A stretch of 64,000 nt of DNA from NCBI GenBank assembly GCA_027371545.1, contig DAHXMW010000010.1, forward strand, positions 2,697 through 66,696, written 5' to 3'. Each line of letters begins with the position of its first letter. Positions within the stretch are counted from its first letter, which is position 1. This stretch comes from Candidatus Micrarchaeota archaeon. Lineage in GTDB: Archaea; Micrarchaeota; Micrarchaeia; Micrarchaeales; CABMGC01. A program made the position numbers and the translations under genes. The notes beneath the pieces were generated by a model, which saw only the letters and a program-made list of their open reading frames with translations, ran no database searches and was not told the origin of the DNA. This document shows, piece by piece, positions 3,229 to 62,868 of the stretch.

Positions 3229-4458
3229 ATGGCATGCGAGATAACGGATATTTCTGTGAGGAAGATACTTGATTCTAGATGCGGGTTCACTGTGGAAGTT
3301 CTCGTGACCGGAAAGGATGGTAATAAGGCGCTTACAAGGGTGCCTAACAGCACAAGCACTGGGGAGCACGAGGTATGTGCTTATCCTAAAGACGGCATTG
3401 ATGCTGGAATTGAAAGATTCGGAAGAGTCAAGAGGCGCTTGATTGGTATGGATGCAGAAGATCAGGTAGGCATTGACTCAGCGCTTAAGTCAATAAGCGG
3501 TAAGCGCTTTGAAGAGGTAGGAGGAAATATCGCCACAGGCGTATCGTTATCTTCTGCAAAGCTTGCGGCAAAGTGCAATGGGATGGAACTTTGCGATTAC
3601 GTTAATAGAGTGCTTATGAAGGGCTCAGGAATTAATGAGGGAATTCCAAGACCCATTGGCAACCTTATCGGAGGAGGGGCGCATGCGCATTCCAATATGA
3701 GCATCCAGGAGATATTGGTATCACCGAAGGGCGAGGGCTTCATGGCAAATGCGTATGCTAATGGGCTGGCGCATAAAAAGCTTGGAGAAGAGCTAGGTGG
3801 GCGAGGTAGCGCTTATGGGGTAAATGTTGAAGGCGCATGGAACACAGGTTTGTCAGATATGGAGAATGTCAGGCTGGCGCACTCGATAGCTGATGCAATA
3901 GAAGGAGAACTTGGTGTTGAGGTGGAGCTGGGCATTGATTTTGCAGCCAGTGAGTATTATGAAGGCGGCAGATACCTTTACCCAGGCAAGAAAATAAGCA
4001 AGGAAGAGCAGATAGATTTCGTCAATAAACTTGCGCAGGAGTTCGGGATCAGATATATTGAAGACCCGATGGAGGAGAACGATTTTGAAGGCTTCGCAAA
4101 GATTAATGACGCACTTGGTGAAAGCGCATTGGTGGTAGGAGATGACATATACACAACTGACCAGGAGCGGCTTAGGACAGGAATAAAGAAGCACTCTTCC
4201 AATGCAGTATTGATAAAGGTAAACCAGATAGGAACCCTGAGCGATACAATAGATGTTGTTAGGCTTGCGCATCGGAGCGGAATGAAGACAGTGGTATCGC
4301 ACAGGAGCAGGGACACATATGATTCTTTCATCGCACACCTTGCAGTTGCATTTGGATCGGAATATATAAAATGCGGGATTGTAGGAGGGGAGCGTGTCTC
4401 CAAGCTTAACGAAGTTGCAAGGATAGAAGAGCTAAAGAAGGCGGTTCAATGGAAGTGA
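3229..4458 (+). CDS. eno: Enolase
   Basis: N-terminal ITDISVRKILDSRCGFTVEV, VLIKVNQIGTLSDT and VVSHRSRDT..DSFIAHLAV match enolase signature regions. Glycolytic neighbour of apgM. Confidence 0.9.
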   Translation: MACEITDISVRKILDSRCGFTVEVLVTGKDGNKALTRVPNSTSTGEHEVCAYPKDGIDAGIERFGRVKRRLIGMDAEDQVGIDSALKSISGKRFEEVGGNIATGVSLSSAKLAAKCNGMELCDYVNRVLMKGSGINEGIPRPIGNLIGGGAHAHSNMSIQEILVSPKGEGFMANAYANGLAHKKLGEELGGRGSAYGVNVEGAWNTGLSDMENVRLAHSIADAIEGELGVEVELGIDFAASEYYEGGRYLYPGKKISKEEQIDFVNKLAQEFGIRYIEDPMEENDFEGFAKINDALGESALVVGDDIYTTDQERLRTGIKKHSSNAVLIKVNQIGTLSDTIDVVRLAHRSGMKTVVSHRSRDTYDSFIAHLAVAFGSEYIKCGIVGGERVSKLNEVARIEELKKAVQWK

Positions 4459-6146
4459 TCATAAAATCCTGCGAGGAGGATAAAGGAATCGCTGCTGAAT
4501 CTTTCAGCGAAGAGGAGGAGAGTGAACTCCATCAATTTGCGACAAATTCCGATAGCAACGTATTTGCATGGAAGATAGGGGATCTTCTTACTGCGGAGCA
4601 GGCTGGTGCGCTTCTTTCCAGGTATAGCAGGACATCGCTTACCGGCCGGCGCCTATTTCTAAAGGAGTTCCTCCCCAACAGGGAGAGGGGCAGGGAATTC
4701 TTCGAGTCCTGGTTGGTAGATTATGGCGATGACTCCATACAGGAGATGGCAGGGGGGATACCTGTTTCTTGCGAATTTGTATCCAACCTTGCCGTAAAGG
4801 ATATAGAGGATAGCAGGCTGGCATCGTATATAGAGAAGTCTTCCAGATATGTGCCTTTTGACAAGAGGCTTCCTGGAGGAAGGTATATGTATTACAAAGG
4901 CATGGACATCTCCGAATCGAGGTTTTCCGATAAGTATGAAGACCTGATGGACGGGCTTTTTGATTCATACTCTTCAGGAATGAAAAAAATGATTCCGTAC
5001 ATAGAAGAATCTAATAGGCTTGAGGATCAGGTATTCAGGGTTCAGGATGCAACGCTTCGCATAACCGAGATGGATTCTGCAAAGGAAGAGAGATACGGAA
5101 TTTCTGAGGAAGATCTGAGGCGCGCTTACGATAATGCGGTAAAGGCGAATGCGCTTGACTTCATGAGAGACTATCTGCCAATGGCCACGCTTACGCATGT
5201 TGGAATAAGCGCGAATGCGCGATCCTACGACAACCTGGTAACCAAGATGCTTGCTTCAACGCTTGGCGAGTCAAGATGGATAGGTAAGCGCATATTGTCC
5301 GAGCTTGGAAAGCTCATACCTTCGCTTATGAAAAGGACCGGAGGTGATTATGGCCAGGCAAAGATCAATTTTATAAGGTCTTCTAGGGAAGGTGCAGAGC
5401 ATGCTGCTGCGGAGGCACTCCCCAATGCTGTTTGGAAAGGTGCTGCATCCCTTGTGGACTACACAGGCAAAGGCTTGGATAGGCCGGACGATGCGGCACA
5501 GATTAACCTATGTGCGGCTATAGTGTATCGCTTTTCAGAAGGAATAAATTTTAGGGAAGCTCTGGAATATGCTAAGGCAGCAGGACGGGAGAGGAGGGAT
5601 ATTATAATAGGTGCGTATGTTGGAAAGAGGGAGAATAGGAGGCTAAAGCCTGGGAGGGCCTTTGAGCATGTAGAGTACCTCGCCGAGTTCACAGGCAGAG
5701 TAGGAATTTATAGGGATCTGCAGAGGCACAGGATAGGCACTCAGGAAAGGCAGAGGTTAACTACAAAGATGGGATTTGAGATGCGTCCCCAGTTTGAGGA
5801 AATAGGAATCTCAGACGAGTATAAATCCAAGATGGCTCTTGCGGATGAGCTTTACAGGGAAATGCAGGAAGATATGCCATATCACGCACAGTATGTGGTG
5901 ACTTATGGTTTCCTCGCCAAATGGTATTATCGAATGAATGCCAGGCAGCTCTTCCATTTTGTTGAGCTGAGGACAACTTCAGGAGGGCATCCCGATTACA
6001 GGATGATGGCGCAGCAGCTCTTCAAGGCAGTTGAAGCCGTACATCCTTCAGTAACAAAGCATATGGGATTTGCCAACCTTGAAGACAAGAAGCTTGGAAG
6101 GCTTGATTCGGAGATAAGGATAGCTATCAAGAAACGCCGGAAATAA
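4449..6146 (+). CDS. thyX: ThyX-family (long form) FAD-dependent thymidylate synthase-like protein
   Basis: YRDLQRHRIGTQERQR resembles the ThyX RHR motif. FHFVELRTTSGGHPDYRMMAQQL resembles the C-terminal ThyX helix region. At 565 aa it is about twice the length of a single-domain ThyX. The start overlaps the eno stop by 10 nt, and the gene is convergent with glyA. Confidence 0.55.
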   Translation: MEVIIKSCEEDKGIAAESFSEEEESELHQFATNSDSNVFAWKIGDLLTAEQAGALLSRYSRTSLTGRRLFLKEFLPNRERGREFFESWLVDYGDDSIQEMAGGIPVSCEFVSNLAVKDIEDSRLASYIEKSSRYVPFDKRLPGGRYMYYKGMDISESRFSDKYEDLMDGLFDSYSSGMKKMIPYIEESNRLEDQVFRVQDATLRITEMDSAKEERYGISEEDLRRAYDNAVKANALDFMRDYLPMATLTHVGISANARSYDNLVTKMLASTLGESRWIGKRILSELGKLIPSLMKRTGGDYGQAKINFIRSSREGAEHAAAEALPNAVWKGAASLVDYTGKGLDRPDDAAQINLCAAIVYRFSEGINFREALEYAKAAGRERRDIIIGAYVGKRENRRLKPGRAFEHVEYLAEFTGRVGIYRDLQRHRIGTQERQRLTTKMGFEMRPQFEEIGISDEYKSKMALADELYREMQEDMPYHAQYVVTYGFLAKWYYRMNARQLFHFVELRTTSGGHPDYRMMAQQLFKAVEAVHPSVTKHMGFANLEDKKLGRLDSEIRIAIKKRRK

Positions 6147-20755: not shown

Positions 20756-20828
20756 TGCGATTGCCGGGATTTGAACCCGGGTTATTGGCTTGGAAAGCCA
20801 AAGTCCTACCAGGCTAGACTACAATCGC
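20756..20828 (-). tRNA. tRNA-Gly (UCC)
   Basis: Reverse complement reads GCGATTG-TA-GTCT-AGCCTGGT-AGGAC-T-TTGGC-TTTCCAA-GCCAA-TAAC-CCGGG-TTCAAAT-CCCGG-CAATCGC-A. All stems pair. Confidence 0.85.
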
Positions 20829-20857
20829 TTCATCGCATATTAAGGTATAAAAATATT

Positions 20858-20875
20858 AATACTTACTGCACGTGC
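20858..20875. repeat. Copy 1 of an exact 18-bp direct repeat AATACTTACTGCACGTGC
   Basis: Identical to 22164..22181. On the minus strand it covers the last three codons (His-Val-Gln), the stop and 6 nt of 3' flank of the antiporter gene. It contains the 8-bp palindrome GCACGTGC. Confidence 0.9.
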
Positions 20876-22119
20876 GCAACTGCCGCCTGCTGCGCCTGCT
20901 CTATCTTTGCCTCTATCCTCTTCTGCTTTATCGAGAAATAAAGCGACGATATGCTATTGAATAGTATAGTAAGTATTATCACAGTGAATATGATGTTTAT
21001 GAACTGGCTTGTGCCTGCAATGCCATATGCCAATGGAAGAGTTGCAAGGACTCCTGCACCCATTCCCCTAGACACCATATAAGATATCTGGAACTTCTCA
21101 TCATCATTATACTGCGATTTCATTAGTGCTACAGGTGTGCCTATAAAGCGTGCGATTATCAATGCCGCGGTTATTGCAACGCCTATCAGGAAAGAGTAGG
21201 GGTTCGAGAAGGAAACAAGGCCGCCCAGATATACAAAGAAGAATGCGCCTGTGAAGAATGTTACGAGGCTGTTAAACCGTTTGGACTCCTTGCTAAGCGT
21301 GAAATTCTTGGTATTCTCGTATTTCATCTCCTTGTATATGGTCTCCCCGTTTGCAAGTATAATACCGAATACAAGCGCGGCTATTGGCCCGCTTCCATTT
21401 ATGTACTGGACTAATATGAATATGATGAATGCAGCAGCTATTGATCCTGCGTATGAATATTCATATCTGTTTGTCTGCAGATATCCCATAATAGGAACCC
21501 ATACTATCCCAGCAAGGGCACCGAATACTATCGCTATCGAGAAGTTGGCAGCGACTGTTGATACCACAAATCCTATGCTGTAGTTGTTAAGGATAATTAT
21601 GTTTATTATCGCAAGGGTAAGAACTATGCCTATAGGATCAGTAAGTATCGATTCTACAGTGACTAGGTTTTTGCTCTGTGAGGACATTGGGGCGCTTTTC
21701 GATATTATTGGTATTACCGCGGCGCTGGTTCCACCGACGATCACTCCCATTAGAATTGCATCAACTTGACTGAAGCCAAAAGCGTACATTGCTATTGCAG
21801 TAAGCAATGCGGATACTACAAAATTAACAACTGCAAGTATTGTAGTCTGGGAGAGGGATCTAACAAACTGGTATATGTTAAGCCTCAACCCTGCGTTGAA
21901 TATTATTATTAGCAGTACCAGAGTAGAGACTATAGGGCTGAGGCTTATAAGAAGAGAGGCTGGCAAGATCCCAAGAACAGGACCGAGGATTATCCCGAAT
22001 GCCAAAAGCCACACTATTGAAGGCAGACCTGTCTTCCTGGCTATTATGTCCCCGATAAACCCTATTACTACGACTCCGGCTATTCCAGCGGAGTATATGT
22101 CTATTGATGAAGTAATCAA
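20863..22119 (-). CDS. Cation/proton antiporter (Na+/H+ exchanger family)
   Basis: 418 aa and almost entirely hydrophobic, with 10 or more predicted TM segments and Gly/Ile/Ala-rich helices typical of CPA-type exchangers. No soluble domain. Confidence 0.65.
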   Translation of the reverse strand: MITSSIDIYSAGIAGVVVIGFIGDIIARKTGLPSIVWLLAFGIILGPVLGILPASLLISLSPIVSTLVLLIIIFNAGLRLNIYQFVRSLSQTTILAVVNFVVSALLTAIAMYAFGFSQVDAILMGVIVGGTSAAVIPIISKSAPMSSQSKNLVTVESILTDPIGIVLTLAIINIIILNNYSIGFVVSTVAANFSIAIVFGALAGIVWVPIMGYLQTNRYEYSYAGSIAAAFIIFILVQYINGSGPIAALVFGIILANGETIYKEMKYENTKNFTLSKESKRFNSLVTFFTGAFFFVYLGGLVSFSNPYSFLIGVAITAALIIARFIGTPVALMKSQYNDDEKFQISYMVSRGMGAGVLATLPLAYGIAGTSQFINIIFTVIILTILFNSISSLYFSIKQKRIEAKIEQAQQAAVAHVQ

Positions 22120-22163
22120 ACGTGAACACCGTTTTTAAGTATTTGTAAGATTTGGAAACTTTA

Positions 22164-22181
22164 AATACTTACTGCACGTGC
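22164..22181. repeat. Copy 2 of an exact 18-bp direct repeat AATACTTACTGCACGTGC
   Basis: Identical to 20858..20875. On the minus strand it covers the last three codons (His-Val-Gln), the stop and 3' flank of the methyltransferase gene. Confidence 0.9.
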
Positions 22182-22930
22182 TTTTTCTCAGGTTCTTTTT
22201 TTATTATTGCGGTGTACAGGCCATTTTTGGCGAAATCTTGCGAATTGATAAACTTATGCACTTTCCATCCGGTGCCCTTCAGTATTTCTTTCATCTCTTT
22301 CTTTGATACGTATAATAAATCAAACCATTCTGTAGAGTATTGCATGAATCTCACTCTTACTCTAAGCTGACCTGGCATCCTGCCCATTTTCCTGTTTGAT
22401 TTATGATATAGTAAATGAAAAGGATTGTCAGTAATGTAAGGATCTCTGTTTCCAGCAATTATTAATGCATCTTCTGTGGTTATTTTATGCATTGTTCTTA
22501 GTAACTGCTTTGCTTTTTTTACATTTGATAACAGGCTAAAATTGTTACCGAACATTATTATGGAGTTAAAGTAGTTCTTCCTGAATGATTTTATCTTTGC
22601 TAGTTCGCAAACCTTTGCGTTTACAACTCCTCTCATTTTGCATACTTTTATTGCTAAAGGTGAATTGTCTATTCCTAAACAATAAATGCCCTTTTCTTGT
22701 AGATATAATGGTACTCTTCCTGCGCCGCAGCCTATATCGAGGCATTTCCCTTTGGCAAGTTTTATGGATTCTTTTTCGCATTTGTCCCACTGATTGTATT
22801 CGGCCAAGTAGACTTTTTCATATCCAGATACATTTATGTATCCATCATCTCGCTCAACTACATCGAAACTTGTAAGTCCATTAAATGCATTCCATATTAT
22901 ATGCCCATATGCGTCATTGAATCTGTTCAT
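22169..22930 (-). CDS. Class I SAM-dependent methyltransferase
   Basis: Motif I is CLDIGCGAGRVPLYL, followed by GIDNSP (motif II region). AT-rich gene. Confidence 0.7.
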   Translation of the reverse strand: MNRFNDAYGHIIWNAFNGLTSFDVVERDDGYINVSGYEKVYLAEYNQWDKCEKESIKLAKGKCLDIGCGAGRVPLYLQEKGIYCLGIDNSPLAIKVCKMRGVVNAKVCELAKIKSFRKNYFNSIIMFGNNFSLLSNVKKAKQLLRTMHKITTEDALIIAGNRDPYITDNPFHLLYHKSNRKMGRMPGQLRVRVRFMQYSTEWFDLLYVSKKEMKEILKGTGWKVHKFINSQDFAKNGLYTAIIKKEPEKKHVQ

Positions 22931-23069
22931 TTCGCACCTTTTACAGATTAACCATTAGTTTAAGTAAGCGTTTATAAACATATATAATTATACGATAAGT
23001 GGTGATGCTGTGGATGGTGCATATTAGGTTCGGATTTTCTATTTTGTTTTTTGAATATTAAGTTAAATT

Positions 23070-24458
23070 CTAATACTTTTTAAGTTCTGTCGGCTTTATT
23101 TTATTTAGTTTTATGAGTAGTTTATAGGCGTTTGAATACATATTATCGAACCTCCTATAACATAATGTACCAGTAATAATTTTTGTTACTATAAGACTTT
23201 TGACTATGCTTCCTTCTAGATCTTTTTCTACTTTCTTAGTAAATAAATCTAGATTTCCTTCAGAAGTAATTGGTAGGAAGGATATTGCTCCATTTGTAGG
23301 GGCACCTATATTCCCAAGTAATGAATATTTGTTTAGTACTTTATCGTATTGAATTTCGTCCTGTAATAATTTATAGCGGTTTTCTTTTATTTTGCTATAA
23401 TCTATGTTTGAGATAAGGATTACACCAATATAATTTGCACCGGTTTTTGTAGCCGATATAGTTGTTCTAACAATTACTCCACTTTCTTGAAGTGTTTGGT
23501 AGGCGTAGCGCGATGTACCTTTACCCATATTATATATCTTATCCAGCTCTGTAAAGTTTATAGAACTGTTCTTATTTAGTTCTTTTATTATGTTATATTC
23601 TCTGATTTTAAGTTGGTTTTTTTCTGGTTTTTTTGCATCTTTTGATTTGAACCAAACTTTATCGCTTAGTATATGGGTTATAAATTGGTCTCTAATTGGA
23701 ACGAAGGAATATGCTTGTGCAAAATACGTTAAGATCCATTGTGCTTTGTATTTGTCAAATGGTGTTTTAGATCTAAGTGTAACTAAATTTTCGTGAGCTT
23801 TTACATGATCTTCATCAATAAGATACATAATCAAGTCATAGTCTCCCTTGGTTATTACAGCGAATTGGATTCTTGGTTCATTAGATATTGCTTCTTCCAA
23901 CTCATTTTGAGTTGGTATGTTCCCTTCAAATTTTATTAGAACTAAATATTGTAGATAGCCGAGCCTCTCTATGTTTAATTCTAATATATATTTCATACCC
24001 AATTCTTTTTCTAAAGACTTGATGTGATAATATACCTTTTGTTTGTTAATCCCGCAGATTTCTGCAAGCCTTGAGGCAGGGATCCTTGCGTTCATGCTTA
24101 ATGCCGTGAGAATCTTGAGATCTGTTTCTTTGAGGTTTAATTTGTTTTCTTCTGCGTGATAAACCTTTGGATTTGTTTGCTTAGAATGCCATATTACTTC
24201 TCCGCCGTTTTCCTCTATGAGTGCCTTTGCTGCCTCTAGATCCTCCTTAGCCGAATGCGCCTTCTTTAGATATCTCCCATCATCTGTTATCCTGCCCAGA
24301 TATTCCGATATGGTCTTGTGCTTCTTCTGCTCTTTGGCCCATATTCCCATTTCCTTGTATACGTAATATCTTCCGGATATTTTCTTCAGGCTTATATTAA
24401 ATGGGTAGAGGGATTTGAGCTCTTTGAATTTTTTTATTATAATGGCGTTGGCTTCCAT
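23070..24458 (-). CDS. Transcription regulator with two tandem Lrp/AsnC-like modules (wHTH + RAM-like) behind an unknown N-terminal domain
   Basis: Module 1 is LKETDLKILTALSMNARIPASRLAEICGINKQKVYYHIKSLEKE followed by YLVLIKFEGN...FAVITKGDYDLIMYL. Module 2 is REYNIIKELNKNSSINFTELDKIYNMGKGTSRYAYQTLQESGVI followed by IGVILISN.... The gene is very AT-rich. Confidence 0.6.
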   Translation of the reverse strand: MEANAIIIKKFKELKSLYPFNISLKKISGRYYVYKEMGIWAKEQKKHKTISEYLGRITDDGRYLKKAHSAKEDLEAAKALIEENGGEVIWHSKQTNPKVYHAEENKLNLKETDLKILTALSMNARIPASRLAEICGINKQKVYYHIKSLEKELGMKYILELNIERLGYLQYLVLIKFEGNIPTQNELEEAISNEPRIQFAVITKGDYDLIMYLIDEDHVKAHENLVTLRSKTPFDKYKAQWILTYFAQAYSFVPIRDQFITHILSDKVWFKSKDAKKPEKNQLKIREYNIIKELNKNSSINFTELDKIYNMGKGTSRYAYQTLQESGVIVRTTISATKTGANYIGVILISNIDYSKIKENRYKLLQDEIQYDKVLNKYSLLGNIGAPTNGAISFLPITSEGNLDLFTKKVEKDLEGSIVKSLIVTKIITGTLCYRRFDNMYSNAYKLLIKLNKIKPTELKKY

Positions 24459-24467
24459 TCAGGCACT

Positions 24468-24533
24468 CTATACGTTATATAACATATCATTTATTTATAA
24501 TACTATACGTTAATTTTACCTTTGAATAACGTA
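24468..24533. promoter_or_regulatory. Three copies of a TACGTTA core in a divergent promoter region (candidate operator)
   Basis: CTATACGTTA occurs at 24468..24477 and again at 24503..24512. The inverted copy TAACGTA is at 24527..24533. The region lies between the divergent tandem-Lrp gene (start 24458) and the small RAM-domain gene (start 24829). Confidence 0.3.
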
Positions 24534-24828
24534 ATTTATCTGGATTAATGTGTAAGAATGATGTAGATATATGATGCGTAGAGCCATCCTGCAGCGTATT
24601 TGCCAGATTAAATTTAAATATAAAGGCAGCGTATAGTTAGGTGGGAGTTGGATGCGGGGAATCACGTATTCTTCTATATCTGATATGCAAGCGTATTATA
24701 GCAATGCACTACCACACCCCTTCTAAGTTGTGTTTGCTACTTTTAGCCATATTGGATTCCCATCCTCTCCCAAATGCTTACTCTTTGCGGAGGATTTCAG
24801 CGATGGCATTTATGCGTAGGTGAGAACT

Positions 24829-25095
24829 ATGGGGAATAATAGAGCGAAACGGCAGAATAACGGTTGCAGGTTCTTTTTGGTGCAGCCTGGGAGCAATAAC
24901 GACGTTAGTGCTACCGCGAGGAGACTAATTGAAATAGAAAATATAAAAGAAGTGCATGTGACAACCGGAGACTTCGGGTTCGTGGTTAGGGCCGATGTGG
25001 ATGAAGTCTCTGCTGGAGCGGTGCAGAAAAAGATTATGAAGCTTACAGATGGCAAGGCATCCTCGGTTGCCTCCTGCATGAAGTATGTAAAGTAA
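24829..25095 (+). CDS. Stand-alone Lrp/AsnC ligand-binding (RAM) domain protein
   Basis: FFLVQPGSNNDVSATARRLIEIENIKEVHVTTGDFGFVVRADVD matches the beta-alpha-beta-beta-alpha-beta RAM pattern of small Lrp-like proteins. The start was set at ATG 24829. Confidence 0.55.
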   Translation: MGNNRAKRQNNGCRFFLVQPGSNNDVSATARRLIEIENIKEVHVTTGDFGFVVRADVDEVSAGAVQKKIMKLTDGKASSVASCMKYVK

Positions 25096-25097
25096 AG

Positions 25098-25170
25098 TGC
25101 GATCGCCGGGATTTGAACCCGGGTTACTGCCTTGGCAAGGCAATGTCCTACCAGGCTAGACTACGATCGC
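25098..25170 (-). tRNA. tRNA-Gly (GCC)
   Basis: Reverse complement reads GCGATCG-TA-GTCT-AGCCTGGT-AGGAC-A-TTGCC-TTGCCAA-GGCAG-TAAC-CCGGG-TTCAAAT-CCCGG-CGATCGC-A. The D and T arms are identical to those of tRNA-Gly(UCC). Confidence 0.85.
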
Positions 25171-54276: not shown

Positions 54277-54894
54277 TTACGGAGCAGATACAAGGTGGGT
54301 TGGTATTGCTATTGCAGCTATCCCGAATGAGAGTATGCTGCCAAGCAGAAGCAGGAGCCAGAATATAACGAGTATTGCGTGCCACCCTTTCCAAGGATTC
54401 TTGCGGAGTCCCGGAAGTTTGTCGGCTATGAGTGCAACAGGATATGAAAAGATCCCTGCAAGCCCGTAGAGGAAATAGAGCGCAAGGAGTGCGATTGGTT
54501 CGCTCGTTAGGCCTATTCCGTATCCTTCTATCCCGTATATTATTACCATCAGGCCAACAAGAAGGCCTACCATGCCTATGTATTCAAGCTTTGATTTGTA
54601 CACCACTGATACAGCATATCCTATGAGTATTATTCCAAATGCTATGAGAGGATCGTAGAAGAGTATGTTGTAGCTTCCCGGAAGCGGCCATGTGAATTGC
54701 CCCCATATGCCCATTAAAAACATGTAAATGCCGAGCAGTCCCAAAGGCACACTCGAGCTTCTGATCGTATCTGAAAAGGTTGCATTCTTCCTCTTTTTGT
54801 ATATTAGATACATTGAGGATATGGTATAAAGGAGCAAGAATCCCGCAAAGCTTATTGCAAACAGTGAGAACGCAAGGTTGTCTATAAAAGCCAC
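54277..54894 (-). CDS. DUF981-like integral membrane protein
   Basis: About 6 TM segments. GQFTWPLPGSYNILFYDP resembles the DUF981 signature as I recall it. Confidence 0.45.
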   Translation of the reverse strand: MAFIDNLAFSLFAISFAGFLLLYTISSMYLIYKKRKNATFSDTIRSSSVPLGLLGIYMFLMGIWGQFTWPLPGSYNILFYDPLIAFGIILIGYAVSVVYKSKLEYIGMVGLLVGLMVIIYGIEGYGIGLTSEPIALLALYFLYGLAGIFSYPVALIADKLPGLRKNPWKGWHAILVIFWLLLLLGSILSFGIAAIAIPTHLVSAP

Positions 54895-54974: not shown

Positions 54975-57563
54975 TTATGCAGTCTTAACCTTGACAGGGC
55001 CTATACCCTTTGATTCCTTTATAAGGTCTTTCCTGAATACGGGGGATATCTCGGCTGCGACTATCTTTCCCTTTTCCGCATCTACTTTCAGATCAAGGAA
55101 CATATAGCCTGTTGTGTCCCCTACAGGTATGCTTATCCTCTTTAGGTATGGGTTATCCTTTGCTTCCTGCATTGCAGGAGATTCGGCAACTATTATCCCG
55201 TTTGCGCTTACAACCTTGAAGCTATGGAAGTGCCCACCTACGCTGAGTTCCACGTCGCTCTTCTTCTTCTCTGCGAAGCTTATCATTGCAGACTCTGTAG
55301 GGCCTACCTTATGGCTGGTCGCTATGCGTATTCCATCTATCTTGAAGCTCTCCGCGCCGTAATCGCTTCCGCTCACGGCAAATAAGCGGTCCTTCCACCC
55401 GGAATCGAGTTTGCCCTGCTCTTCATGCGCCATGAGGTGCACGGCAGTCATATCCCTAAGCCTTGTGGATTCGTCAAGCTGCCAATCCGAGTATGTCTTG
55501 TTGTAGTGGTTGCCTGAGACAAATATCACGCTGCCTCCACGCATTATGACATCGTCTATAAGGGGCATTGCTATCTCCATGAAAGGCCTCGCCTGGGCGT
55601 CTATGTTGCTTATGACCCTGCTCTTGCTCGAATAGTATGATTCAAGCAGCTTGGCCTTAAGCTCCTCTCCGCTGATTCCGGACTCTATCAGCTGCTTCTC
55701 GTAGTCTCTTGGGAATGTCACTTCGGATTCTGGCCTGTTTACGTACTTGTAATTGTTATGGTTCCCTTCTATTATGTCGCCGCTGAATATGAGGACGTCT
55801 GGCTTGCGCGCGAGGGCGTCTTTCACGCTCTCCTGCAGCAGCTTTGCATCGCTGTAGTTTCCGAAATGCACGTCGCTTATTACAGCCACCTTCATCTGGC
55901 GGGGATCCTGAGGCGGACCTTCTGCGTGGTGCGGTATTGTCTGCATTATGCCTTCGCTTCCGAGTATAGTGGCGTCCTTCTCCGTAAGCTCAGATGGCCT
56001 CTTGTTGGATGCTATTAGTAGATCCAGCCCTGGCTTGGTTGAGCCCTCAGTATCAGAATTAGGCTTGGTCCCTGTTATTAATTTCGTAGCCGCTCCTAGC
56101 TCCTCTACATCGCTTGCGCGCCTCTCTGCCTTCAGGAGCTCGGATGATATTATGGAGAACTGCACTGTGCCGTCAGGGTTTACTTTCACCATGCTTGCCC
56201 CAGAGTCGAGATAGCCTTTCTCGAAGGCCTGCGTCTGTTTCGTCTTTATCCTGCTGTTCCAGAGGCTCGCTATTCCGCTTATATCGAAGAACGGGCCCTG
56301 TGAGAGTACGGCAAGCAGGGCTTCGCTGTTGTCCTTTATCGGATCTATGCTGAAAGAGGTATATGTGTTGTTCCCGCTTACCAGCAATGTAAGAGGTTTT
56401 GAGAGGAGCTTGTCGTAGCTTAGTATCCCGCCGTTCTTGAGCAATCGCTCGAATCTATCCGGCATCTGGGAGTTGCTCGTCTTCTGATATGATTGCGAGG
56501 ACATATTCATGGAGTTGCTTACAACTAGGTTGAATTCGTATCCTCCGCTGTTCTTTTCGTACAGGGCGACTTCCTCCATGTTTACTACGACATCGCGCTT
56601 CCTTCCTAGCGCATCGCGTATTGTTGATCCGTAATAGGATAGGGCTGCCTCGCGTATCAGGTCAACCGCCTCCTTTGAGACTACAATGTTCTTTGTGAAT
56701 GTGTATGCCTGCTTCATCCTCTGCGCCATCGCATTTGTCGATTCGGTATTTATTGCATGCTCGTACCTGTAATTCAGCGCCTTGAGTATGCTTGCCTGCC
56801 GCTTTGATTCTGAGCGCAGTGTTTCTGCCTGCTGGGGCGTCGTGGAAGTGTCTTCAAGCTGGCGCTGGATATCATCCTGCCTCGCTGTTGCGTTCTTTAT
56901 CATCTTCTTTATCTCTTCTTTTGATGATTTGTCGAGGCTCATCTCATAGAGTTTCTGGAGAAGTTCCTTCCTGAAGGTAAGTTCATCAAGAATTGCGCGC
57001 TCGGCCTTGAGTTTTCTATCGACTCTTCTTAGCTCCTCTTCGCGTGCAAGTTCTGGCGATGAGTGCTGCTGCTCTGCAAGGCTTCTCCGAGAGGAAGTAT
57101 ATGCGCGTATATTGGTGCGCTGTGCACGAATCCCCTCTATTGTGCTGTCGAGGCGTGACGCGAGGCTCTCTGCACTATAAGCAAATTCCTTGTTCAGCGT
57201 GTCTTCTATAAGCTTTATGTTCTCGAAGTCTGCTTTTCCAAGGACATATATTGCAGTCGCATCGCTTGGAAGGGAATTGACAAGCCTCTCGACATGCGGC
57301 TTTACTATAGCAGCTGCATCATTAGCATTTGATACGCCACCCTTCTTTATTGAGAGTAGTTTATCCCTGTACCTCGAAGAACCTGTCATCGGAAATTCCG
57401 GTATCAGACCTCCATTTATTATTAGGAAATTGGGCTTCTCGGAATTCGGAATCTGATTTATGTAGTGTGCGAGGCCAATGAAATTGTCCTCTCCCAGATA
57501 TTCCGTCCCGCCTCCAACATCAGAGATAACCAATACGTTAAAACTTTTTTCCCCACTCTGCAT
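54975..57563 (-). CDS. Tandem calcineurin-like metallophosphoesterase: degenerate N-terminal copy with a coiled-coil insert, intact C-terminal copy
   Basis: The C-terminal half has all MPE motifs: VAVISDVHFG (DxH), IFSGDIIEG (GD), VSGNHYN (GNH) and GGHFHSF (GHxH). The N-terminal half is collinear but lacks the ligands: VLVISDVGGG, LIINGGLIPE, YVLGKADFE. A long charged helical region (EELRRVDRKLKAERAILDELTFRKELLQKLYEM...) follows. Confidence 0.65.
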   Translation of the reverse strand: MQSGEKSFNVLVISDVGGGTEYLGEDNFIGLAHYINQIPNSEKPNFLIINGGLIPEFPMTGSSRYRDKLLSIKKGGVSNANDAAAIVKPHVERLVNSLPSDATAIYVLGKADFENIKLIEDTLNKEFAYSAESLASRLDSTIEGIRAQRTNIRAYTSSRRSLAEQQHSSPELAREEELRRVDRKLKAERAILDELTFRKELLQKLYEMSLDKSSKEEIKKMIKNATARQDDIQRQLEDTSTTPQQAETLRSESKRQASILKALNYRYEHAINTESTNAMAQRMKQAYTFTKNIVVSKEAVDLIREAALSYYGSTIRDALGRKRDVVVNMEEVALYEKNSGGYEFNLVVSNSMNMSSQSYQKTSNSQMPDRFERLLKNGGILSYDKLLSKPLTLLVSGNNTYTSFSIDPIKDNSEALLAVLSQGPFFDISGIASLWNSRIKTKQTQAFEKGYLDSGASMVKVNPDGTVQFSIISSELLKAERRASDVEELGAATKLITGTKPNSDTEGSTKPGLDLLIASNKRPSELTEKDATILGSEGIMQTIPHHAEGPPQDPRQMKVAVISDVHFGNYSDAKLLQESVKDALARKPDVLIFSGDIIEGNHNNYKYVNRPESEVTFPRDYEKQLIESGISGEELKAKLLESYYSSKSRVISNIDAQARPFMEIAMPLIDDVIMRGGSVIFVSGNHYNKTYSDWQLDESTRLRDMTAVHLMAHEEQGKLDSGWKDRLFAVSGSDYGAESFKIDGIRIATSHKVGPTESAMISFAEKKKSDVELSVGGHFHSFKVVSANGIIVAESPAMQEAKDNPYLKRISIPVGDTTGYMFLDLKVDAEKGKIVAAEISPVFRKDLIKESKGIGPVKVKTA

Positions 57564-57691
57564 TTTACCCCCCGATACTAATTATGCATATGGTTATTTA
57601 ATTCTTTATTGCTGTTTCTGTGCGGATTTTATAAATATTCTTATTTGCTGCAGCACCAAAAACAAAACTAATAAAGGTTTGGAGATAAGAT

Positions 57692-58177
57692 ATGCATATG
57701 GTTGATATTTTTCCTCACAGCGCGGGCGTTAGCCACGTCAGAGGCATCGTAAGGATAATAAGCCAGAATGAAGGCGCTGTCTCAATATCCGAACTTGCCG
57801 AAGAGGCTGAGGAGGACGTCGACGATTTACTACCGCTGATAGACGCATGCGAGCTTATGGGGCTTGCTTCGGTGAAGGACTCTGAGATAAGGATAACCGA
57901 GAAAGGGGCGAAGATGGTAAAATCGGGGCCTTTCAAAATACTTAGGGAAAGCATAAGGAAGGTGGAGCCTTTCAAGAGTACAATAGCTGCCATATCAAAG
58001 AACAGGAAAACTACGGAAGAAATAGCAGAATACCTAATTGGCAAGGGGATAGTAATTGATCAGGTACCTGAGAATAATGTCCAGACCCTCAGGAAGCTGC
58101 TGCGCAACTGGGGTGCAGGCACAAGGCTGCTTTCATACGATGAGCAGAACGATTCCTGGAGCATAAGGAGCTATTGA
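57692..58177 (+). CDS. Stand-alone 'AAA-associated domain' protein of NitT/TauT-type ABC systems
   Basis: 161 aa. HVRGIVRIISQNEGAVSISELAEEAEEDVDDLLPLIDACELMGLA resembles the C-terminal accessory domain found on, or next to, nitrate/sulfonate-type ABC ATPases. It abuts the ABC ATPase gene tail-to-tail. Confidence 0.45.
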   Translation: MHMVDIFPHSAGVSHVRGIVRIISQNEGAVSISELAEEAEEDVDDLLPLIDACELMGLASVKDSEIRITEKGAKMVKSGPFKILRESIRKVEPFKSTIAAISKNRKTTEEIAEYLIGKGIVIDQVPENNVQTLRKLLRNWGAGTRLLSYDEQNDSWSIRSY

Positions 58178-58933
58178 TCAGTCATTTGCAAGTGCGGCAT
58201 ATACCTGATCCATCGTAGCTGTGAATTTCCTGCTCCTCTTTGTTCTTGGACGCTTGAGATCCACAGTGATTATCTCCTTTACCGTTGACGGTTTTTTTGA
58301 CAATACTATTATCCTGTCGGAGAGCTCCACTGCCTCTTCAACGTTATGGGTCACCATTATGACCGACTTCACAGGGAGATCCTTGTTCTTGAGCTGGTAT
58401 AATATATCGTTCCTGAGAGTGTCTGCGGTAAGCTGGTCCAACGAGCTGAACGGCTCGTCCATAAGGAGCACGCTTGGCGCTGATGCAAGTGCCCTGGCTA
58501 TCCCTACCCTCTGCTTCATGCCTCCACTGAGTATGTTCGGGTAAGAGTTCTCGAATCCGCTAAGGCCGAACGTATCGAGAAGGAGCGTTGCCCTCTTGGT
58601 CTTCTCCTCTTCGCTTATATCCAATATCGAGAATCCAAGCTTGACATTCTCAAGCACCGTAAGCCATGGCAGTAGTGCGAAATCCTGGAATACAAACGAA
58701 ACGCCCCTGGACGGGCCCTTGACTTCGCTATCCATGTACATTACTTTTCCAGTGTTTGGCATTATGAGCCCCGCTATTATCCTGAGCAATGTGCTTTTCC
58801 CGCAGCCGCTCGGGCCGGTTACGGATATGAATTCGTCCTCCTCAACGCTAAATGATACCTTGTCAATCAGGCTTGCTTCTCCTTCCTCGAATGAGAATGA
58901 TATGTCTTCAAGCTTGATCATTGTCATTGGCAT
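58178..58933 (-). CDS. ABC transporter ATP-binding protein (NitT/TauT family-like)
   Basis: Walker A GPSGCGKST, Q-loop, signature LSGGMKQRVGIARAL, Walker B LLMDEPFSSLD and H-loop VTHN. Confidence 0.85.
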   Translation of the reverse strand: MPMTMIKLEDISFSFEEGEASLIDKVSFSVEEDEFISVTGPSGCGKSTLLRIIAGLIMPNTGKVMYMDSEVKGPSRGVSFVFQDFALLPWLTVLENVKLGFSILDISEEEKTKRATLLLDTFGLSGFENSYPNILSGGMKQRVGIARALASAPSVLLMDEPFSSLDQLTADTLRNDILYQLKNKDLPVKSVIMVTHNVEEAVELSDRIIVLSKKPSTVKEIITVDLKRPRTKRSRKFTATMDQVYAALAND

Positions 58934-58937
58934 TTTA

Positions 58938-60524
58938 TTACCTATATACTATTGTCGCCTTGCGATATAACCTTTTCCATAAAAATGTATTAATAAGAAT
59001 TATCATTGCAGAGAGATTTATTAGGCCTATGAGCATGAGGAGCAGGTTGTTGGAGTTTAATGCCAGATTAAGCAGTTTGCCTATTCCCACGCCAACCTGC
59101 GTGACCGAATCCCCGCTCACGAAGTATTCAGCCACTATGCTTACGTTCCACTCAGCAGCTATAGCTGTAACCGCTCCGGTTATGAGACCTGGTATTATTG
59201 CCGGTATGTATATCTTCTTCCAGGCCTCAAGGCCGTGTATGCCAAATACTTTCTTGACCTCGTCTATCCTAAATGGCATGGATTTGCTCGCACCTATAGC
59301 GCTGAATATCAGGTACCATATCCCGCTGATGAAATATACCATTATTGCAGTAAGTTCAGCAGAATGCGGATAGGTCCTGAGTGTGGATATTATTGCCGGA
59401 AGCAGTATCGTTGAGGGTATTGATGCTATTATCTGGAAGGCAATTATATAGCGTGAGATGTTCTTTGACATGAATATGAGATAAACAGATATTGGCACGG
59501 ATATTGCCAGAATTATTGCAAAGACAACCCATATCCTGACGAAAGAGAATGCTATGCTTTCTGCGACAAATGCTTCGTCGCTTATTATTTTAGGGTAATA
59601 ATATGTGACCAGTGCGGTTGCTATCATCAGCATCATTAATAGAAATGCAATCTGCTTTTTAGATGAGGCTTTCATAGATTTTTTGGATGGCAGCGTCTTG
59701 CTTATGTACATGCTGGCTTTTGGATATGCTTTCTCTCTGCCGGTAGTACTGGGCCTTTGTGCAGGCTGAATTCTGGTAAAAAGCCTGTTTGGCAATTTAG
59801 CTATTGAACGCCAGTTCAGGTACCTGTTCACGTTTGATTGTGGCTTGTAGTATCTTGAGTAGTAATCCTCAAGTGGCTTGAAAAAGAGCATCCTAGTTGC
59901 TATAACGAAAACTACGAACATTGCGATGCCGGTGAGATAATATGTAATGTTGCTCGTTATTGCTGCGCTTGCCAGAGCCGCGCCTATCCCATACTTAACG
60001 CTGTATTGTGCGGTGCCGGTTGAGAATATTTCGCTTGTGACAAGATAAAAGAGCCCTATTGACCAAGATAATATTGACTGCTGCACTATCCTTGGTGCCG
60101 CAGCTGGAAGGTATATTGTCTTGAGTTTCTCCAGGCTCGTAAGGCCATACATCTCAGACATCTCGAAAAACTCCGATGGTATTGTCTTTATGGCTTCGTA
60201 TACGCCGAATATTATATTCCATATCATGCTTGTTACGATTAGAAAGATCACAGCGGCATTTATTCCTATATAGCCTGGCAGGTATCCTACAAAAACGTAT
60301 ATCACTATAGGGAAGAATGCGAGGATTGGCAATGTCTGGAATATATCTATCACGGGGAGCAGAAGCTTCTCGGCCCTTCTAGAAGTAGCGATATATATCC
60401 CGAGGATTATGCTTATGACTACGGATATTCCCAGGGCTATGAACATCCTAGACCATGAATATATGCTGTCTACAAGAAGATTTCCTATTAACCCTAGATA
60501 AAGAGACATATCCATCCGAGACAC
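58938..60524 (-). CDS. ABC transporter permease, duplicated (two fused transmembrane domains)
   Basis: 528 aa with two hydrophobic halves separated by a basic linker (KPQSNVNRYLNWRS...KKSMKASSKK). Directly upstream of the ABC ATPase (4-nt gap). Confidence 0.72.
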   Translation of the reverse strand: MSRMDMSLYLGLIGNLLVDSIYSWSRMFIALGISVVISIILGIYIATSRRAEKLLLPVIDIFQTLPILAFFPIVIYVFVGYLPGYIGINAAVIFLIVTSMIWNIIFGVYEAIKTIPSEFFEMSEMYGLTSLEKLKTIYLPAAAPRIVQQSILSWSIGLFYLVTSEIFSTGTAQYSVKYGIGAALASAAITSNITYYLTGIAMFVVFVIATRMLFFKPLEDYYSRYYKPQSNVNRYLNWRSIAKLPNRLFTRIQPAQRPSTTGREKAYPKASMYISKTLPSKKSMKASSKKQIAFLLMMLMIATALVTYYYPKIISDEAFVAESIAFSFVRIWVVFAIILAISVPISVYLIFMSKNISRYIIAFQIIASIPSTILLPAIISTLRTYPHSAELTAIMVYFISGIWYLIFSAIGASKSMPFRIDEVKKVFGIHGLEAWKKIYIPAIIPGLITGAVTAIAAEWNVSIVAEYFVSGDSVTQVGVGIGKLLNLALNSNNLLLMLIGLINLSAMIILINTFLWKRLYRKATIVYR

Positions 60525-60843: not shown

Positions 60844-62868
60844 TTGCAGCTGGACTTTGTTCCTATGGTGGGTGCAAATATGGAAGATAGATATAGGAAG
60901 GCCTTGGAGGAATTCGGGGTTCTTACTTATCTGTCGCGCACTTCCTCTGGTCCGGAGGGCATCTCCATGGAGGACATAATGAAGAGCATTTTCTACTCTG
61001 CCCCAGGTATAGATTATCACAGGAGGAGCATAAAGAGCATGGTCGTTGATGGAGAGATAGCCGCAAAGGAGGGGAGGCTGCAGGATTATACCCAGATGAT
61101 AAATGTACGTGACATACTTGATGTTGCGAGGAGGCTTGTGGCTAAAGAGATTAATAAGCACGACATAGCATACCTTCGGAGTACGCTTCTTGAAGGAGTC
61201 CTTGGAATAGACGGTTCTGGGTTCAGGAGGTTCAGAAACCGATCGGGCCATTACATAACCGCTCCTACAGATGAGGTAAGCGGAGGGATGGATGCATTAG
61301 TAGAGCTTCTGAATAAGCCTTCGAAGAACGGCATAGACGCTTTTTCCAATGCCGTGGATTTCTTCCTTGGCTTCGTAAAGCTGCATCCTTTTGATGAGTG
61401 CGTTGGGAGGACGGACAGGATAGTCACGAACAGCTATCTGATAGCCCATGGAATAAACCCCATATTCCTCAACAACAATGGAAGCAGCCACTCTTACGCT
61501 TCTGCTCTTGATATATCGTATTTCTCCGGATATTATGGGGCCTTTATAGCGATAGCCCTTATTTCTGCAATGGACAACAAGAACAAGGAGGCATTTATAT
61601 CGAAGATAAAATCAGAGAGCTATACGGATCCTACAATGATAGAGCTCAAGAATCTTGTGCTTTCCGTAACGAAAGAGTTGGGAGGTGAAGAGCTGGTTAG
61701 AGTGCTGGGCCTGTCTGAAAATCTGTACTGCAAGGACTCTGCACCACTGCTCCTTTCCGGGCTTTTTGCGCTGAAGACTTACGGAATGGATAGCGAGATT
61801 ATAGAGATGGCCCTGCGGCATAAGGACAGTGGCATAAGGGCAGTAGGGTTTTATACTGCAGAGGCTGTCAATTTTGCAAAATACAAGAACGCATTTATTG
61901 ATGCTGCAATACACGATCCCAGCGTAGATGTCAGAATGGTTGCAGTGGGCATACTTGGAACCAGGAAGGAGCTTGATGGGAAAACAGCATTGAGGATACT
62001 TGCGTCTTCCACTGAAGAGACAGTTTTGATATCGCTTGGATCTGCTATGAGGTTTGCTGCAGGAGGAGATGTTGAATGCATGGATGTAATAAATGCAATT
62101 TGCGCGTCAAGGTCGAAAGATGTCAGGTTCAGGGGCTTCCAGGCGATGATGGTACATGGGGATAATGGTGCTGTGGCTAATACGATAGCTTTACTTAAAG
62201 ATGAGCCGCTTGAGATGTTCAGGGCTGCAGTAACAGAGCTGAAAAGGGTTGGAAGGATAAATGATTACGATATAGCAAAGAGCCTGGCAGACGTAGTATC
62301 TGGTGATGTGCAAAAACGCAAGATGCTTTTGGGCCAGCTGGCCATGGATGGAAGAGTATCTGATGCATATCAGGGTATGCTTAATGATGTGTTAACTTCT
62401 GACAATTCGGGTGCGGTGGAGAAGATCTACGCCGCATATCTTTTTGGTACCAAATACGGCTACGCACAGACCGTTTCAATGTATCCGGATGCAGAAAGCC
62501 TGAAGGACCATATGCTATTTGGAATAGTGAAGACAATACTTATGGTTGATGAGGCAAATGGCGGTGCTGATAAGTTAAAGCAGCGCATACCAGAACTTGT
62601 CTCAAATAGTGCCTTGCAGAACTTCGTACTTGCTTCTGAACTTGGAAGCCTTATGAAAAAAGGAGGGCTTGATGGAGAGTTGGTGAAGAAAGTTGCAGAG
62701 GCTATCGAAGCAGCAGAGCCTGTAATCAGGAACTCAGACAGATTCTACAACCTCACAGCTCAGTTGAAGAGAAAGGCAGCAATGATGAACGATCTCATTG
62801 AAGCTGGCAGGACTGGCGTGGCAGCGACAAATAGCACAGGGCTGAAGAATGCAAGAATAAAACGCTGA
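60844..62868 (+). CDS. Fic-domain protein with a degenerate active-site motif, fused to C-terminal HEAT-like repeats
   Basis: HPFDECVGRTDR (61384..61419) compared with the canonical HxFx(D/E)GNGRxxR. N-terminal STLLEG (61180..61197) fits the (S/T)xxxE(G/N) inhibitory-helix motif. The C-terminal half has repeated HKDSGIRAVGFY / HDPSVDVRMVAVGILG-type HEAT units. TTG start; the real start may be an internal ATG (MVGANMEDRY). Confidence 0.6.
   Translation: MQLDFVPMVGANMEDRYRKALEEFGVLTYLSRTSSGPEGISMEDIMKSIFYSAPGIDYHRRSIKSMVVDGEIAAKEGRLQDYTQMINVRDILDVARRLVAKEINKHDIAYLRSTLLEGVLGIDGSGFRRFRNRSGHYITAPTDEVSGGMDALVELLNKPSKNGIDAFSNAVDFFLGFVKLHPFDECVGRTDRIVTNSYLIAHGINPIFLNNNGSSHSYASALDISYFSGYYGAFIAIALISAMDNKNKEAFISKIKSESYTDPTMIELKNLVLSVTKELGGEELVRVLGLSENLYCKDSAPLLLSGLFALKTYGMDSEIIEMALRHKDSGIRAVGFYTAEAVNFAKYKNAFIDAAIHDPSVDVRMVAVGILGTRKELDGKTALRILASSTEETVLISLGSAMRFAAGGDVECMDVINAICASRSKDVRFRGFQAMMVHGDNGAVANTIALLKDEPLEMFRAAVTELKRVGRINDYDIAKSLADVVSGDVQKRKMLLGQLAMDGRVSDAYQGMLNDVLTSDNSGAVEKIYAAYLFGTKYGYAQTVSMYPDAESLKDHMLFGIVKTILMVDEANGGADKLKQRIPELVSNSALQNFVLASELGSLMKKGGLDGELVKKVAEAIEAAEPVIRNSDRFYNLTAQLKRKAAMMNDLIEAGRTGVAATNSTGLKNARIKR

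Follow-up and report, generated by a model that had tools for sequence, protein, structure and literature searches.

The window analysed here is a stretch of 64,000 nucleotides from a Candidatus Micrarchaeota archaeon (assembly GCA_027371545.1, contig DAHXMW010000010.1), and its minus strand carries at 54975-57563 a stand-alone gene for a protein of 862 amino acids, with an ATG start and a TAA stop, which is the subject of this report. An original prediction, made from the sequence of the window by itself, had described the product as a pseudo-dimeric metallophosphoesterase (MPE) made up of a dead N-terminal copy, a charged coiled-coil segment, a long linker domain and a live C-terminal copy, and had likened it to Mre11/Rad50. 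The open reading frame (ORF) is indeed real and lies on the minus strand, which that prediction omitted to state; the plus-strand frame across the same interval is full of stops. The peptides it quoted are all present in the translation, namely SDVHFG (residues 563-568), SGDIIEG (594-600), SGNHYN (683-688) and GGHFHSF (776-782) in the C-terminal copy, where the histidine of motif IV is H751, SDVGGG (14-19), INGGLI (49-54) and LGKADFE (108-114) in the N-terminal copy, and a charged helical stretch beginning with REEELRR at residue 174. Upstream of the start (57568-57635, minus strand) there are, by pattern match only, a GGGGGG at -10 to -5 (57568-57573) and a TATA-like TTTATAAAA box at -72 to -64 (57627-57635), and the intergenic region here is 128 bp long and common to the divergent gene of an AAA_assoc_C protein. 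No signal peptide or transmembrane segment is evident when the sequence is inspected by eye, and the first strand starts at residue 8.

An exhaustive phmmer search against 1.84 billion protein representatives (E <= 1e-3) returned 86 relatives, about 60 of which exceed 680 residues. Most relatives are 850-1100 residues in length; about 45 of the best 56 are 830-1130 residues long and can be aligned over their whole length with 24-37% identity, and on clustering at 50% identity about 60 clusters show the full-length architecture. The locus is furthermore found unchanged in more than 10 independent assemblies from acid-mine drainage or tailings, and the strain variants listed for 57234-57510 in one sequencing run lie nearly all at multiples of three. 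The ratio of nonsynonymous to synonymous differences per site (pN/pS) was computed against orthologues of 98% and 96% identity over five segments of the protein, with pS at 0.33-0.60, and amounted to 0.01-0.03 in the N-domain core, 0.07-0.08 in the helical insert, 0.01-0.06 in the linker and 0.00-0.02 in the C-domain, so that all segments, the supposedly dead N-domain included, are under strong purifying selection. Since the full-length architecture recurs, the locus is shared by many assemblies and pN/pS is low throughout, we can conclude that this is a real gene and not a chance frame, and a mis-assembly of two genes, which the original prediction had allowed for, is ruled out by the same recurrence of architecture and locus.

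The domain limits given below derive largely from an AlphaFold2 model built with a 42-sequence alignment, which has a mean predicted local distance difference test score (pLDDT) of 88.4, a predicted template modelling score of 0.87 and 547 residues at a pLDDT of at least 90; a model from the single sequence reached a pLDDT of 39.5 and was not used. The C-terminal MPE domain comprises residues 550-850 (55014-55916, on the minus strand like all parts of the gene) and is delimited by Pfam, the model, Foldseek and an alignment of 60 family sequences, with the MPE fold ending near residue 845 of the model, followed by a disordered tail of 12 residues. It matches the Pfam family Metallophos (PF00149) with 42.5 bits against a cutoff of 21.5 (E = 1.3e-10), and the same model is matched at E <= 0.1 by 19 of 42 family members. 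The domain has the whole set of calcineurin-like motifs, as had been predicted, with D564-V-H566 as motif I (55866-55874), G595-D596 as motif II (55776-55781), G684-N685-H686 as motif III (55506-55514), H751 as motif IV (55311-55313) and G777-H778-F-H780 as motif V (55224-55235), the fourth residue of motif III being tyrosine and not aspartate or glutamate. These ligands are invariant or nearly so in the 60 homologues: D564, H686, H751 and H780 occur in every sequence and H566 in 59, while position 596 is aspartate in 53 and glutamate in 7, position 685 asparagine in 48 and glutamine in 10, and position 778 histidine in 34 and aspartate in 25. Because the full ligand set is conserved, the pattern fits an active two-metal enzyme. 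Residues that are invariant specifically in this family are Q657, E698 and G684, and G819 (59 of 60), D697, N688, G732 and G736 come close; Q657 lies in an additional helical insert between motifs II and III (residues 601-675, about 55 residues).

The first half of the N-terminal domain (residues 1-109; 57237-57563) is modelled as strand 1 (8-14), a helix, strand 2 (46-50), two helices and strand 3 (103-107), and it bears degenerate counterparts of motifs I to III. The first of these, SDVGGGT (residues 14-20; 57504-57524), has the family consensus G-E-L-G-G-G-T, in which the acid of motif I is retained in 44 of 60 sequences (31 glutamate, 13 aspartate), and the position of the motif I histidine is glycine in 33 of 60 and then alanine, phenylalanine or glutamate, histidine not being among the four commonest residues. 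In the second, NGGLIP (residues 50-55; 57399-57416), the metal-bridging aspartate has become glycine or glutamate, and G51 and P55 are conserved. The third, GKADFEN (residues 109-115; 57219-57239), keeps the glycine and aspartate of GNHD and has lost the asparagine and histidine, with G109 found in 46, D112 in 58 and N115 in 59 of the 60 sequences. Loss of the motif I histidine, the motif II aspartate and the Asn-His pair of motif III is common to all members. The second half of the domain (residues 320-473; 56145-56606) has eight strands arranged as 3+3+2, at 325-328, 332-339 and 342-349, then after helices at 391-396, 402-408 and 416-421, and after further helices at 455-461 and 467-473. Vestigial positions of motifs IV and V are seen here at N350 and at GNNT (397-400); histidine stands at the former in 19 and at the latter in 31 of the 60 sequences, and both histidines are gone in the protein of the window, where the ligand positions of the N-domain thus read D15-V-G17, G51-G52, G109-K-A, N350 and G397-N-N-T and do not make up a catalytic motif set. 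Conserved in the family within this half are S356, P408, D427, K440, T441, T444 and S454. In a distant subfamily (P0057-P0085) vestiges of the N-domain motifs survive, motif I reading SD-[LV]-x-I-G-T and motif V P-D-x4-G-H-x-x-G-G-F.

That the two domains are homologous, as the original prediction proposed, is supported by profile alignment and by the model. When the N-domain with its insert excised (residues 1-118 and 318-476) was aligned with the C-domain by hhalign, using the 60 sequences, a probability of 86% (P = 4.7e-6) was obtained over 176 colinear columns running through motifs I to V, and the 42-sequence alignment gave 67% (P = 5e-5) through motifs I and II. The strand order as assigned by DSSP is the same 3+3+3+2 in both domains of the model, the strands of the C-domain lying at 555-563, 590-594 and 678-682, at 727-730, 737-742 and 745-750, at 773-776, 782-787 and 790-794, and at 819-827 and 834-843. 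Residues 4-55 furthermore give weak matches to Pfam Metallophos (below threshold and in the query only, E = 0.006-0.008) and to the NCBIfam model of PolD DP1. On the strength of alignment and model the N-domain is thus very probably a degenerate MPE that arose by internal duplication. To call it dead is nonetheless too strong as a functional label: the histidine ligands are lost, as had been noted, but no part of the protein is better conserved than the first half of the domain, whose mean identity to the query is 33% as against 27% in the C-domain and which has near-invariant residues of its own in G30, P44, G51, P55, P58, K88, R93, Y106, D112, N115 and the GGGT loop. These are located at the C-terminal ends of strands 1-3, where the active site of an MPE would be, and include the elements GE-GGGT, KPH-x-x-R and Y-x-x-G-x-x-D-x-x-N, which suggests that a pocket or interface has been retained in a new role.

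Between the two halves of the N-domain lies a helical insert or arm of about 210 residues (110-319; 56607-57236), with long helices at 110-168, 172-210, 215-237, 243-270, 274-290 and 297-319. It had been placed after the N-terminal copy, whereas it sits inside that fold, directly after strand 3, and given this position and the strand order, residues 320-473 behind it, previously taken for a long linker domain, make up the other half of the N-terminal MPE-like fold. The arm is the fastest-evolving segment of the protein, with 19% identity and a length of 127-339 residues in the family, and it is basic (pI 9.0, family median 8.5), with K254 near-invariant. A crude test for heptad a/d positions found no significant register in any of the long helices (p = 0.09-0.87), and we therefore speak of a helical arm or bundle and not of a coiled coil; the charged helical character noted originally thus stands, and the canonical heptad is unsupported. 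A weak Foldseek match to the BAR domain of arfaptin (E = 0.023) is plausibly owed to the arm as well. The protein has no cysteine at all and hence no zinc hook. The two domains are joined by a helical linker (residues 474-549; 55917-56144), in which a K-[LR]-P-S-E motif is conserved, here KRPSE at residues 521-525 (55989-56003).

When the whole model was compared with the PDB by Foldseek, the top matches were all MPEs, led by Rv0805 (E = 1.3e-5), PolD DP1 (from 4.5e-5) and Mre11 (3e-4) and followed by GpdQ and SbcD, all five with a probability of 1.0, and by Vps29, GAP50 and the B-subunit of Pol epsilon; in BFVD the matches, likewise with a probability of 1.0, were phage MPEs, proteins named DNA polymerase II small subunit and SbcD-like proteins. 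Sequence searches of the PDB, with the single sequence and with a full-length profile, gave coiled-coil noise and marginal matches to DP1, SbcD and Mre11. The nearest folds Rv0805, PolD DP1, Mre11/SbcD and GpdQ are phosphodiesterases or nucleases that function as dimers, and it is for this reason that we propose the protein to be a cytoplasmic, single-chain and pseudo-heterodimeric MPE of Micrarchaeota and related DPANN archaea, derived from an ancient internal duplication, a reading to which we assign a probability of roughly 0.6. Judging from the nearest folds, the C-domain would carry out two-metal hydrolysis of phosphodiesters. The N-domain would be incapable of binding a dinuclear metal centre and would probably act as a built-in partner in place of a second protomer, as a module for binding substrate or ligand, or as both. 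The basic and fast-evolving arm may serve to bring the enzyme into place on a partner or a polyanionic substrate.

Several observations weigh against this proposal or parts of it. A BLASTP comparison of the N-domain with the C-domain gave no match, a profile of 21 insert-free N-domains retrieved no MPE from the PDB, only a spurious poxvirus polymerase at E of about 0.3, and just one of these 21 N-domains has a sub-threshold match to Pfam Metallophos. Together with an hhalign probability of 86%, not above 95%, these results could be taken to mean that the N-terminal region is an alpha/beta domain of different descent, with no more than a resemblance to the first beta-alpha-beta unit of an MPE, and that no internal duplication took place. 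This is nevertheless very unlikely, since the alignment with the insert excised is colinear over five motif positions, the order of 11 strands is identical in a high-confidence model, and vestigial SDxxIGT, GxxD and PDxxxxGH are found exactly at the expected strand ends. It should furthermore be considered that the Foldseek matches carry no query ranges and so are not assignable to one domain, that the substrate class is drawn solely from the order in which remote fold neighbours rank (E = 1e-5 to 1e-3, 12-15% identity), and that the conserved pocket of the N-domain could mean that this domain is not inert. Contigs of the locus were likewise absent from three metatranscriptomes from one of the studies, a result that is uninformative on expression.

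As regards the substrate, the fold neighbours point tentatively, at somewhat less than even odds, to nucleic acid or nucleotide-derived phosphodiesters, with small-molecule phosphodiesters next. Under the latter alternative the enzyme would act like Rv0805/CpdA, GpdQ or LpxH on cyclic or 2',3'-cyclic nucleotides, on glycerophosphodiesters or on a lipid or nucleotide-sugar pyrophosphate, with the N-domain standing in for the dimer partner or providing an allosteric site. Rv0805 is after all the best fold match in the PDB, with a TM score normalised to the target of 0.43-0.54, and GpdQ also ranks high; the only weak matches of the C-domain profile outside the family are small proteins of about 260 residues (Metallophos/Metallophos_2, E = 0.017-0.3), two of which are labelled LpxH or predicted phosphodiesterase, residues 556-601 give weak NCBIfam matches to YaeI and LpxG, and no nucleic-acid-binding domain was detected with Pfam. 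DP1, Mre11 and SbcD however score about equally, all of these matches are too remote to discriminate, and a basic arm of about 210 residues would be unexpected in a small-molecule enzyme, for which reasons we regard this alternative as rather unlikely. With Rv0805/CpdA and GpdQ the C-domain has in common the MPE fold with the full DxH, GD, GNH, H and G[H/D]xH set. These enzymes need a second MPE protomer, a part that could here be played by the degenerate copy within the chain itself. The differences are that there is no significant sequence match to them in the PDB, Pfam or NCBIfam (13-15% identity) and that the Micrarchaeota protein combines in a single chain a degenerate and an intact domain, the long insert in the former, the shorter insert between motifs II and III and the invariant residues Q657 and D697-E698.

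PolD DP1 accounts for 8 of the top 12 fold matches in the PDB and has the weak NCBIfam match in the N-domain (residues 4-53), but the score against NF003118 is 19.8 bits where the cutoff is 445, the model contains no OB fold, and no neighbouring gene resembles DP2. The B-subunits of polymerases are a precedent for an MPE fold that survives as a scaffold without its metal ligands; the Micrarchaeota protein differs from them in having an inactivated and an active copy in one chain. Vps29 and the GAP50 of Plasmodium, which are also among the fold matches, likewise keep the MPE fold without a working dinuclear centre, but these are single-domain proteins of eukaryotic complexes and share no detectable sequence relationship with the protein described here.

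A more specific role for the N-domain would be that of a sensor. Its pocket may have been rebuilt around the GE-GGGT loop, K88-P-H90-x-x-R93, Y106, D112 and N115 so as to bind a phosphate ligand without metal and thereby to gate the metal centre of the C-domain, in which case the ligand would be a nucleotide or the end of a nucleic acid, the gating might pass through the K-[LR]-P-S-E motif of the linker, and the arm would oligomerise or tether the enzyme. We consider this unlikely.

The genes around the MPE gene were read in the window and in 13 homologous loci, which represent 11 distinct neighbourhoods, over 6-10 kb. In the window the MPE gene is flanked on the same strand by a DUF981 gene (54277-54894) and diverges from the plus-strand gene of the AAA_assoc_C protein (57692-58177), which stands alone and is 161 residues long, whereas fusion with an ABC ATPase is the usual arrangement for this domain; genes for an ABC ATPase and a permease adjoin it on the minus strand (58178-60524). 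A block of ABC, AAA_assoc_C and DUF929 genes is common to three Micrarchaeota lineages, represented by the window, L006 and L013, in which the orthologues are 32-35% identical. More distant members have as neighbours genes for haem biosynthesis and a DEAD helicase (L008), PNP and ScpAB, HMG-CoA synthase, ribosomal proteins with PAC2 and ProRS, or IleRS. A convergent gene for a HerA-like DUF87 ATPase adjoins the MPE gene in one lineage only (L004/L005), where the L004 protein is 83% identical to the family member P0003. A conserved gene neighbourhood was considered and rejected, the HerA-like neighbour being restricted to a single lineage and the ABC, AAA_assoc_C and DUF929 block representing lineage synteny only. 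The original prediction had suggested examining conserved neighbours, and none is conserved across the neighbourhoods read: the MPE gene behaves as a stand-alone housekeeping gene, and no partner can be inferred from its context. As a separate observation, L004, which belongs to a related Micrarchaeota metagenome-assembled genome (MAG), encodes at 15342-17927 on the plus strand a protein of 861 residues that consists almost entirely of leucine-rich-repeat-variant (LRV) or HEAT repeats (25 LRV stretches, E = 1e-234), and its gene overlaps a 781-residue ORF on the opposite strand.

These neighbourhoods bear in particular on the notion that the protein is a nuclease for processing or tethering DNA ends, which replaces or complements Mre11-Rad50 in the reduced DPANN genomes and uses its arm as a Rad50-like bridge without the ATPase. 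The likeness to Mre11/SbcD consists in the MPE nuclease fold (Foldseek E = 3e-4 to 1e-2), in marginal profile matches over motifs I and II (E of about 0.65-0.9), in PHROG matches labelled SbcD-like and DNA repair exonuclease, and in the concept of an MPE pair with a long helical element; the similarity of the fold to DP1, the basic arm and the proximity of the HerA-like ATPase in L004/L005 and of the DEAD helicase in L008 may also be cited in favour. Yet no gene for an ATPase of the Rad50, SbcC or SMC type lies within the 6-10 kb read in the window or in any of the 13 loci, the HerA adjacency is confined to one lineage and to convergently oriented genes, and there is no DUF87 gene in the window. 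The protein itself has neither the capping domain nor the Rad50-binding helix-loop-helix of Mre11/SbcD, and Pfam matches to Mre11_DNA_bind or SbcD_C are lacking in all 42 members scanned. The arm is furthermore intramolecular, inserted in the degenerate domain, free of cysteine and far shorter than the coiled coils of Rad50, and it has no significant heptad register. We therefore consider such a role distinctly improbable, and the Mre11/Rad50 analogy of the original prediction finds no evidence here.

A function in anti-virus defence or as the nuclease of a mobile element, and not as a housekeeping enzyme, is brought to mind by a gene 3.3 kb from the MPE gene (60844-62868, plus strand). Its product of 674 residues combines a Fic/DOC domain at the N-terminus with a long C-terminal part that is uncharacterised, and it matches the PADLOC families PDC-S04 and SoFic (E = 1e-11 to 3e-9); the synteny of the gene extends to the sister strains L001 and L002. 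MPE effectors do occur in some defence systems. The MPE protein itself however matches no PADLOC family at E <= 0.1, viral contigs scanned with the single protein held no relative, the neighbourhoods are of housekeeping type with lineage-level synteny across orthologues of 32-35% identity, and purifying selection is very strong, so that this possibility is extremely slight.

The family appears to be specific to Micrarchaeota and related DPANN archaea, its named members being annotated as hypothetical proteins from Ca. Micrarchaeaceae, Micrarchaeota or unclassified archaeon MAGs; the phylum Micrarchaeota is now named Microcaldota by NCBI and belongs to the kingdom Nanobdellati (DPANN). Generic MPEs fall below significance in the phmmer search, from which it follows that the catalytic domain forms an isolated clade. 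A scan of genomes with the single protein found two loci, 96% identical in a Candidatus Micrarchaeota archaeon MAG and 35% identical in another. A word-indexed search with the whole protein or with the 42-sequence alignment returned only the 98% identical P0001, probably owing to crowding by low-complexity helical words, and the C-domain profile added three more metagenomic fragments, with the best outgroup at E = 0.017. Some relatives (P0020, P0022 and P0035, and P0037, P0041, P0044 and P0050) are short and cover either only the C-domain (about 220-380 residues) or only the first half of the N-domain (about 140-180 residues); these are probably fragments at contig ends, but split-gene variants are possible. 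Pfam, NCBIfam, PHROGs and PADLOC gave only a generic Metallophos signal in the C-terminal part, a Pfam scan of the long family members for fused domains found nothing beyond it, and the literature on Micrarchaeota with metallophosphoesterase or Mre11, and on tandem or pseudodimeric MPEs, contains no description of such a protein. The assertion that this architecture belongs to no named family accordingly agrees with these four databases, with PDB searches by sequence and by fold and with the literature. The MPE superfamily and inactivated MPE scaffolds are already known, but no family model, solved structure or paper was found that describes the tandem of a degenerate and an active MPE with a helical insert.

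Apart from the MPE gene the window has a few other features that may be recorded. A low-GC island at 20756-25170, with a GC fraction of 0.33 in 22001-24000 against about 0.46 elsewhere, is bracketed by tRNA-Gly(TCC) at 20756-20828 and tRNA-Gly(GCC) at 25097-25170 and contains, both on the minus strand, genes for a SAM-methyltransferase (22169-22930) and for a winged-helix protein of 462 residues (23070-24458); the island may have arrived by horizontal transfer or represent an integrated element. Rfam reports tRNA matches of 87 nt at 9461-9547 (minus strand) and of 138 nt at 44470-44607 (plus strand), which ARAGORN missed and which probably are intron-containing archaeal tRNAs. These two, like the DUF929 and DUF981 genes, mark the window as archaeal. 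A ThyX-like protein of 565 residues (4449-6146, plus strand) has two Thy1 stretches and appears to be a tandem or extended ThyX; L013 has a counterpart of 577 residues, and SHMT adjoins in both.

DPANN genomes are tiny, so that an important function is likely for a gene of 2.6 kb that very strong purifying selection has preserved in them throughout the phylum; synonymous sites are nearly saturated while pN/pS stays low, and yet the named members are annotated merely as hypothetical proteins. Within the metallophosphoesterase superfamily the protein is furthermore a clean case in nature of a pseudoenzyme joined in tandem to an enzyme. One chain may here replace an obligate homodimer, which would leave one copy free to acquire a long helical arm and a conserved pocket of a new kind. 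Knowledge of the substrate could bring to light a step of nucleic-acid or nucleotide metabolism that is peculiar to the lineage, and now that Micrarchaeota are held in laboratory co-cultures the question is open to experiment. If the N-domain should indeed prove to be a sensor, the protein would be a self-regulated and ATPase-free nucleic-acid-processing machine unique to DPANN archaea, and as such a candidate for taking over some task in repair or turnover for which their reduced genomes have no other provision.

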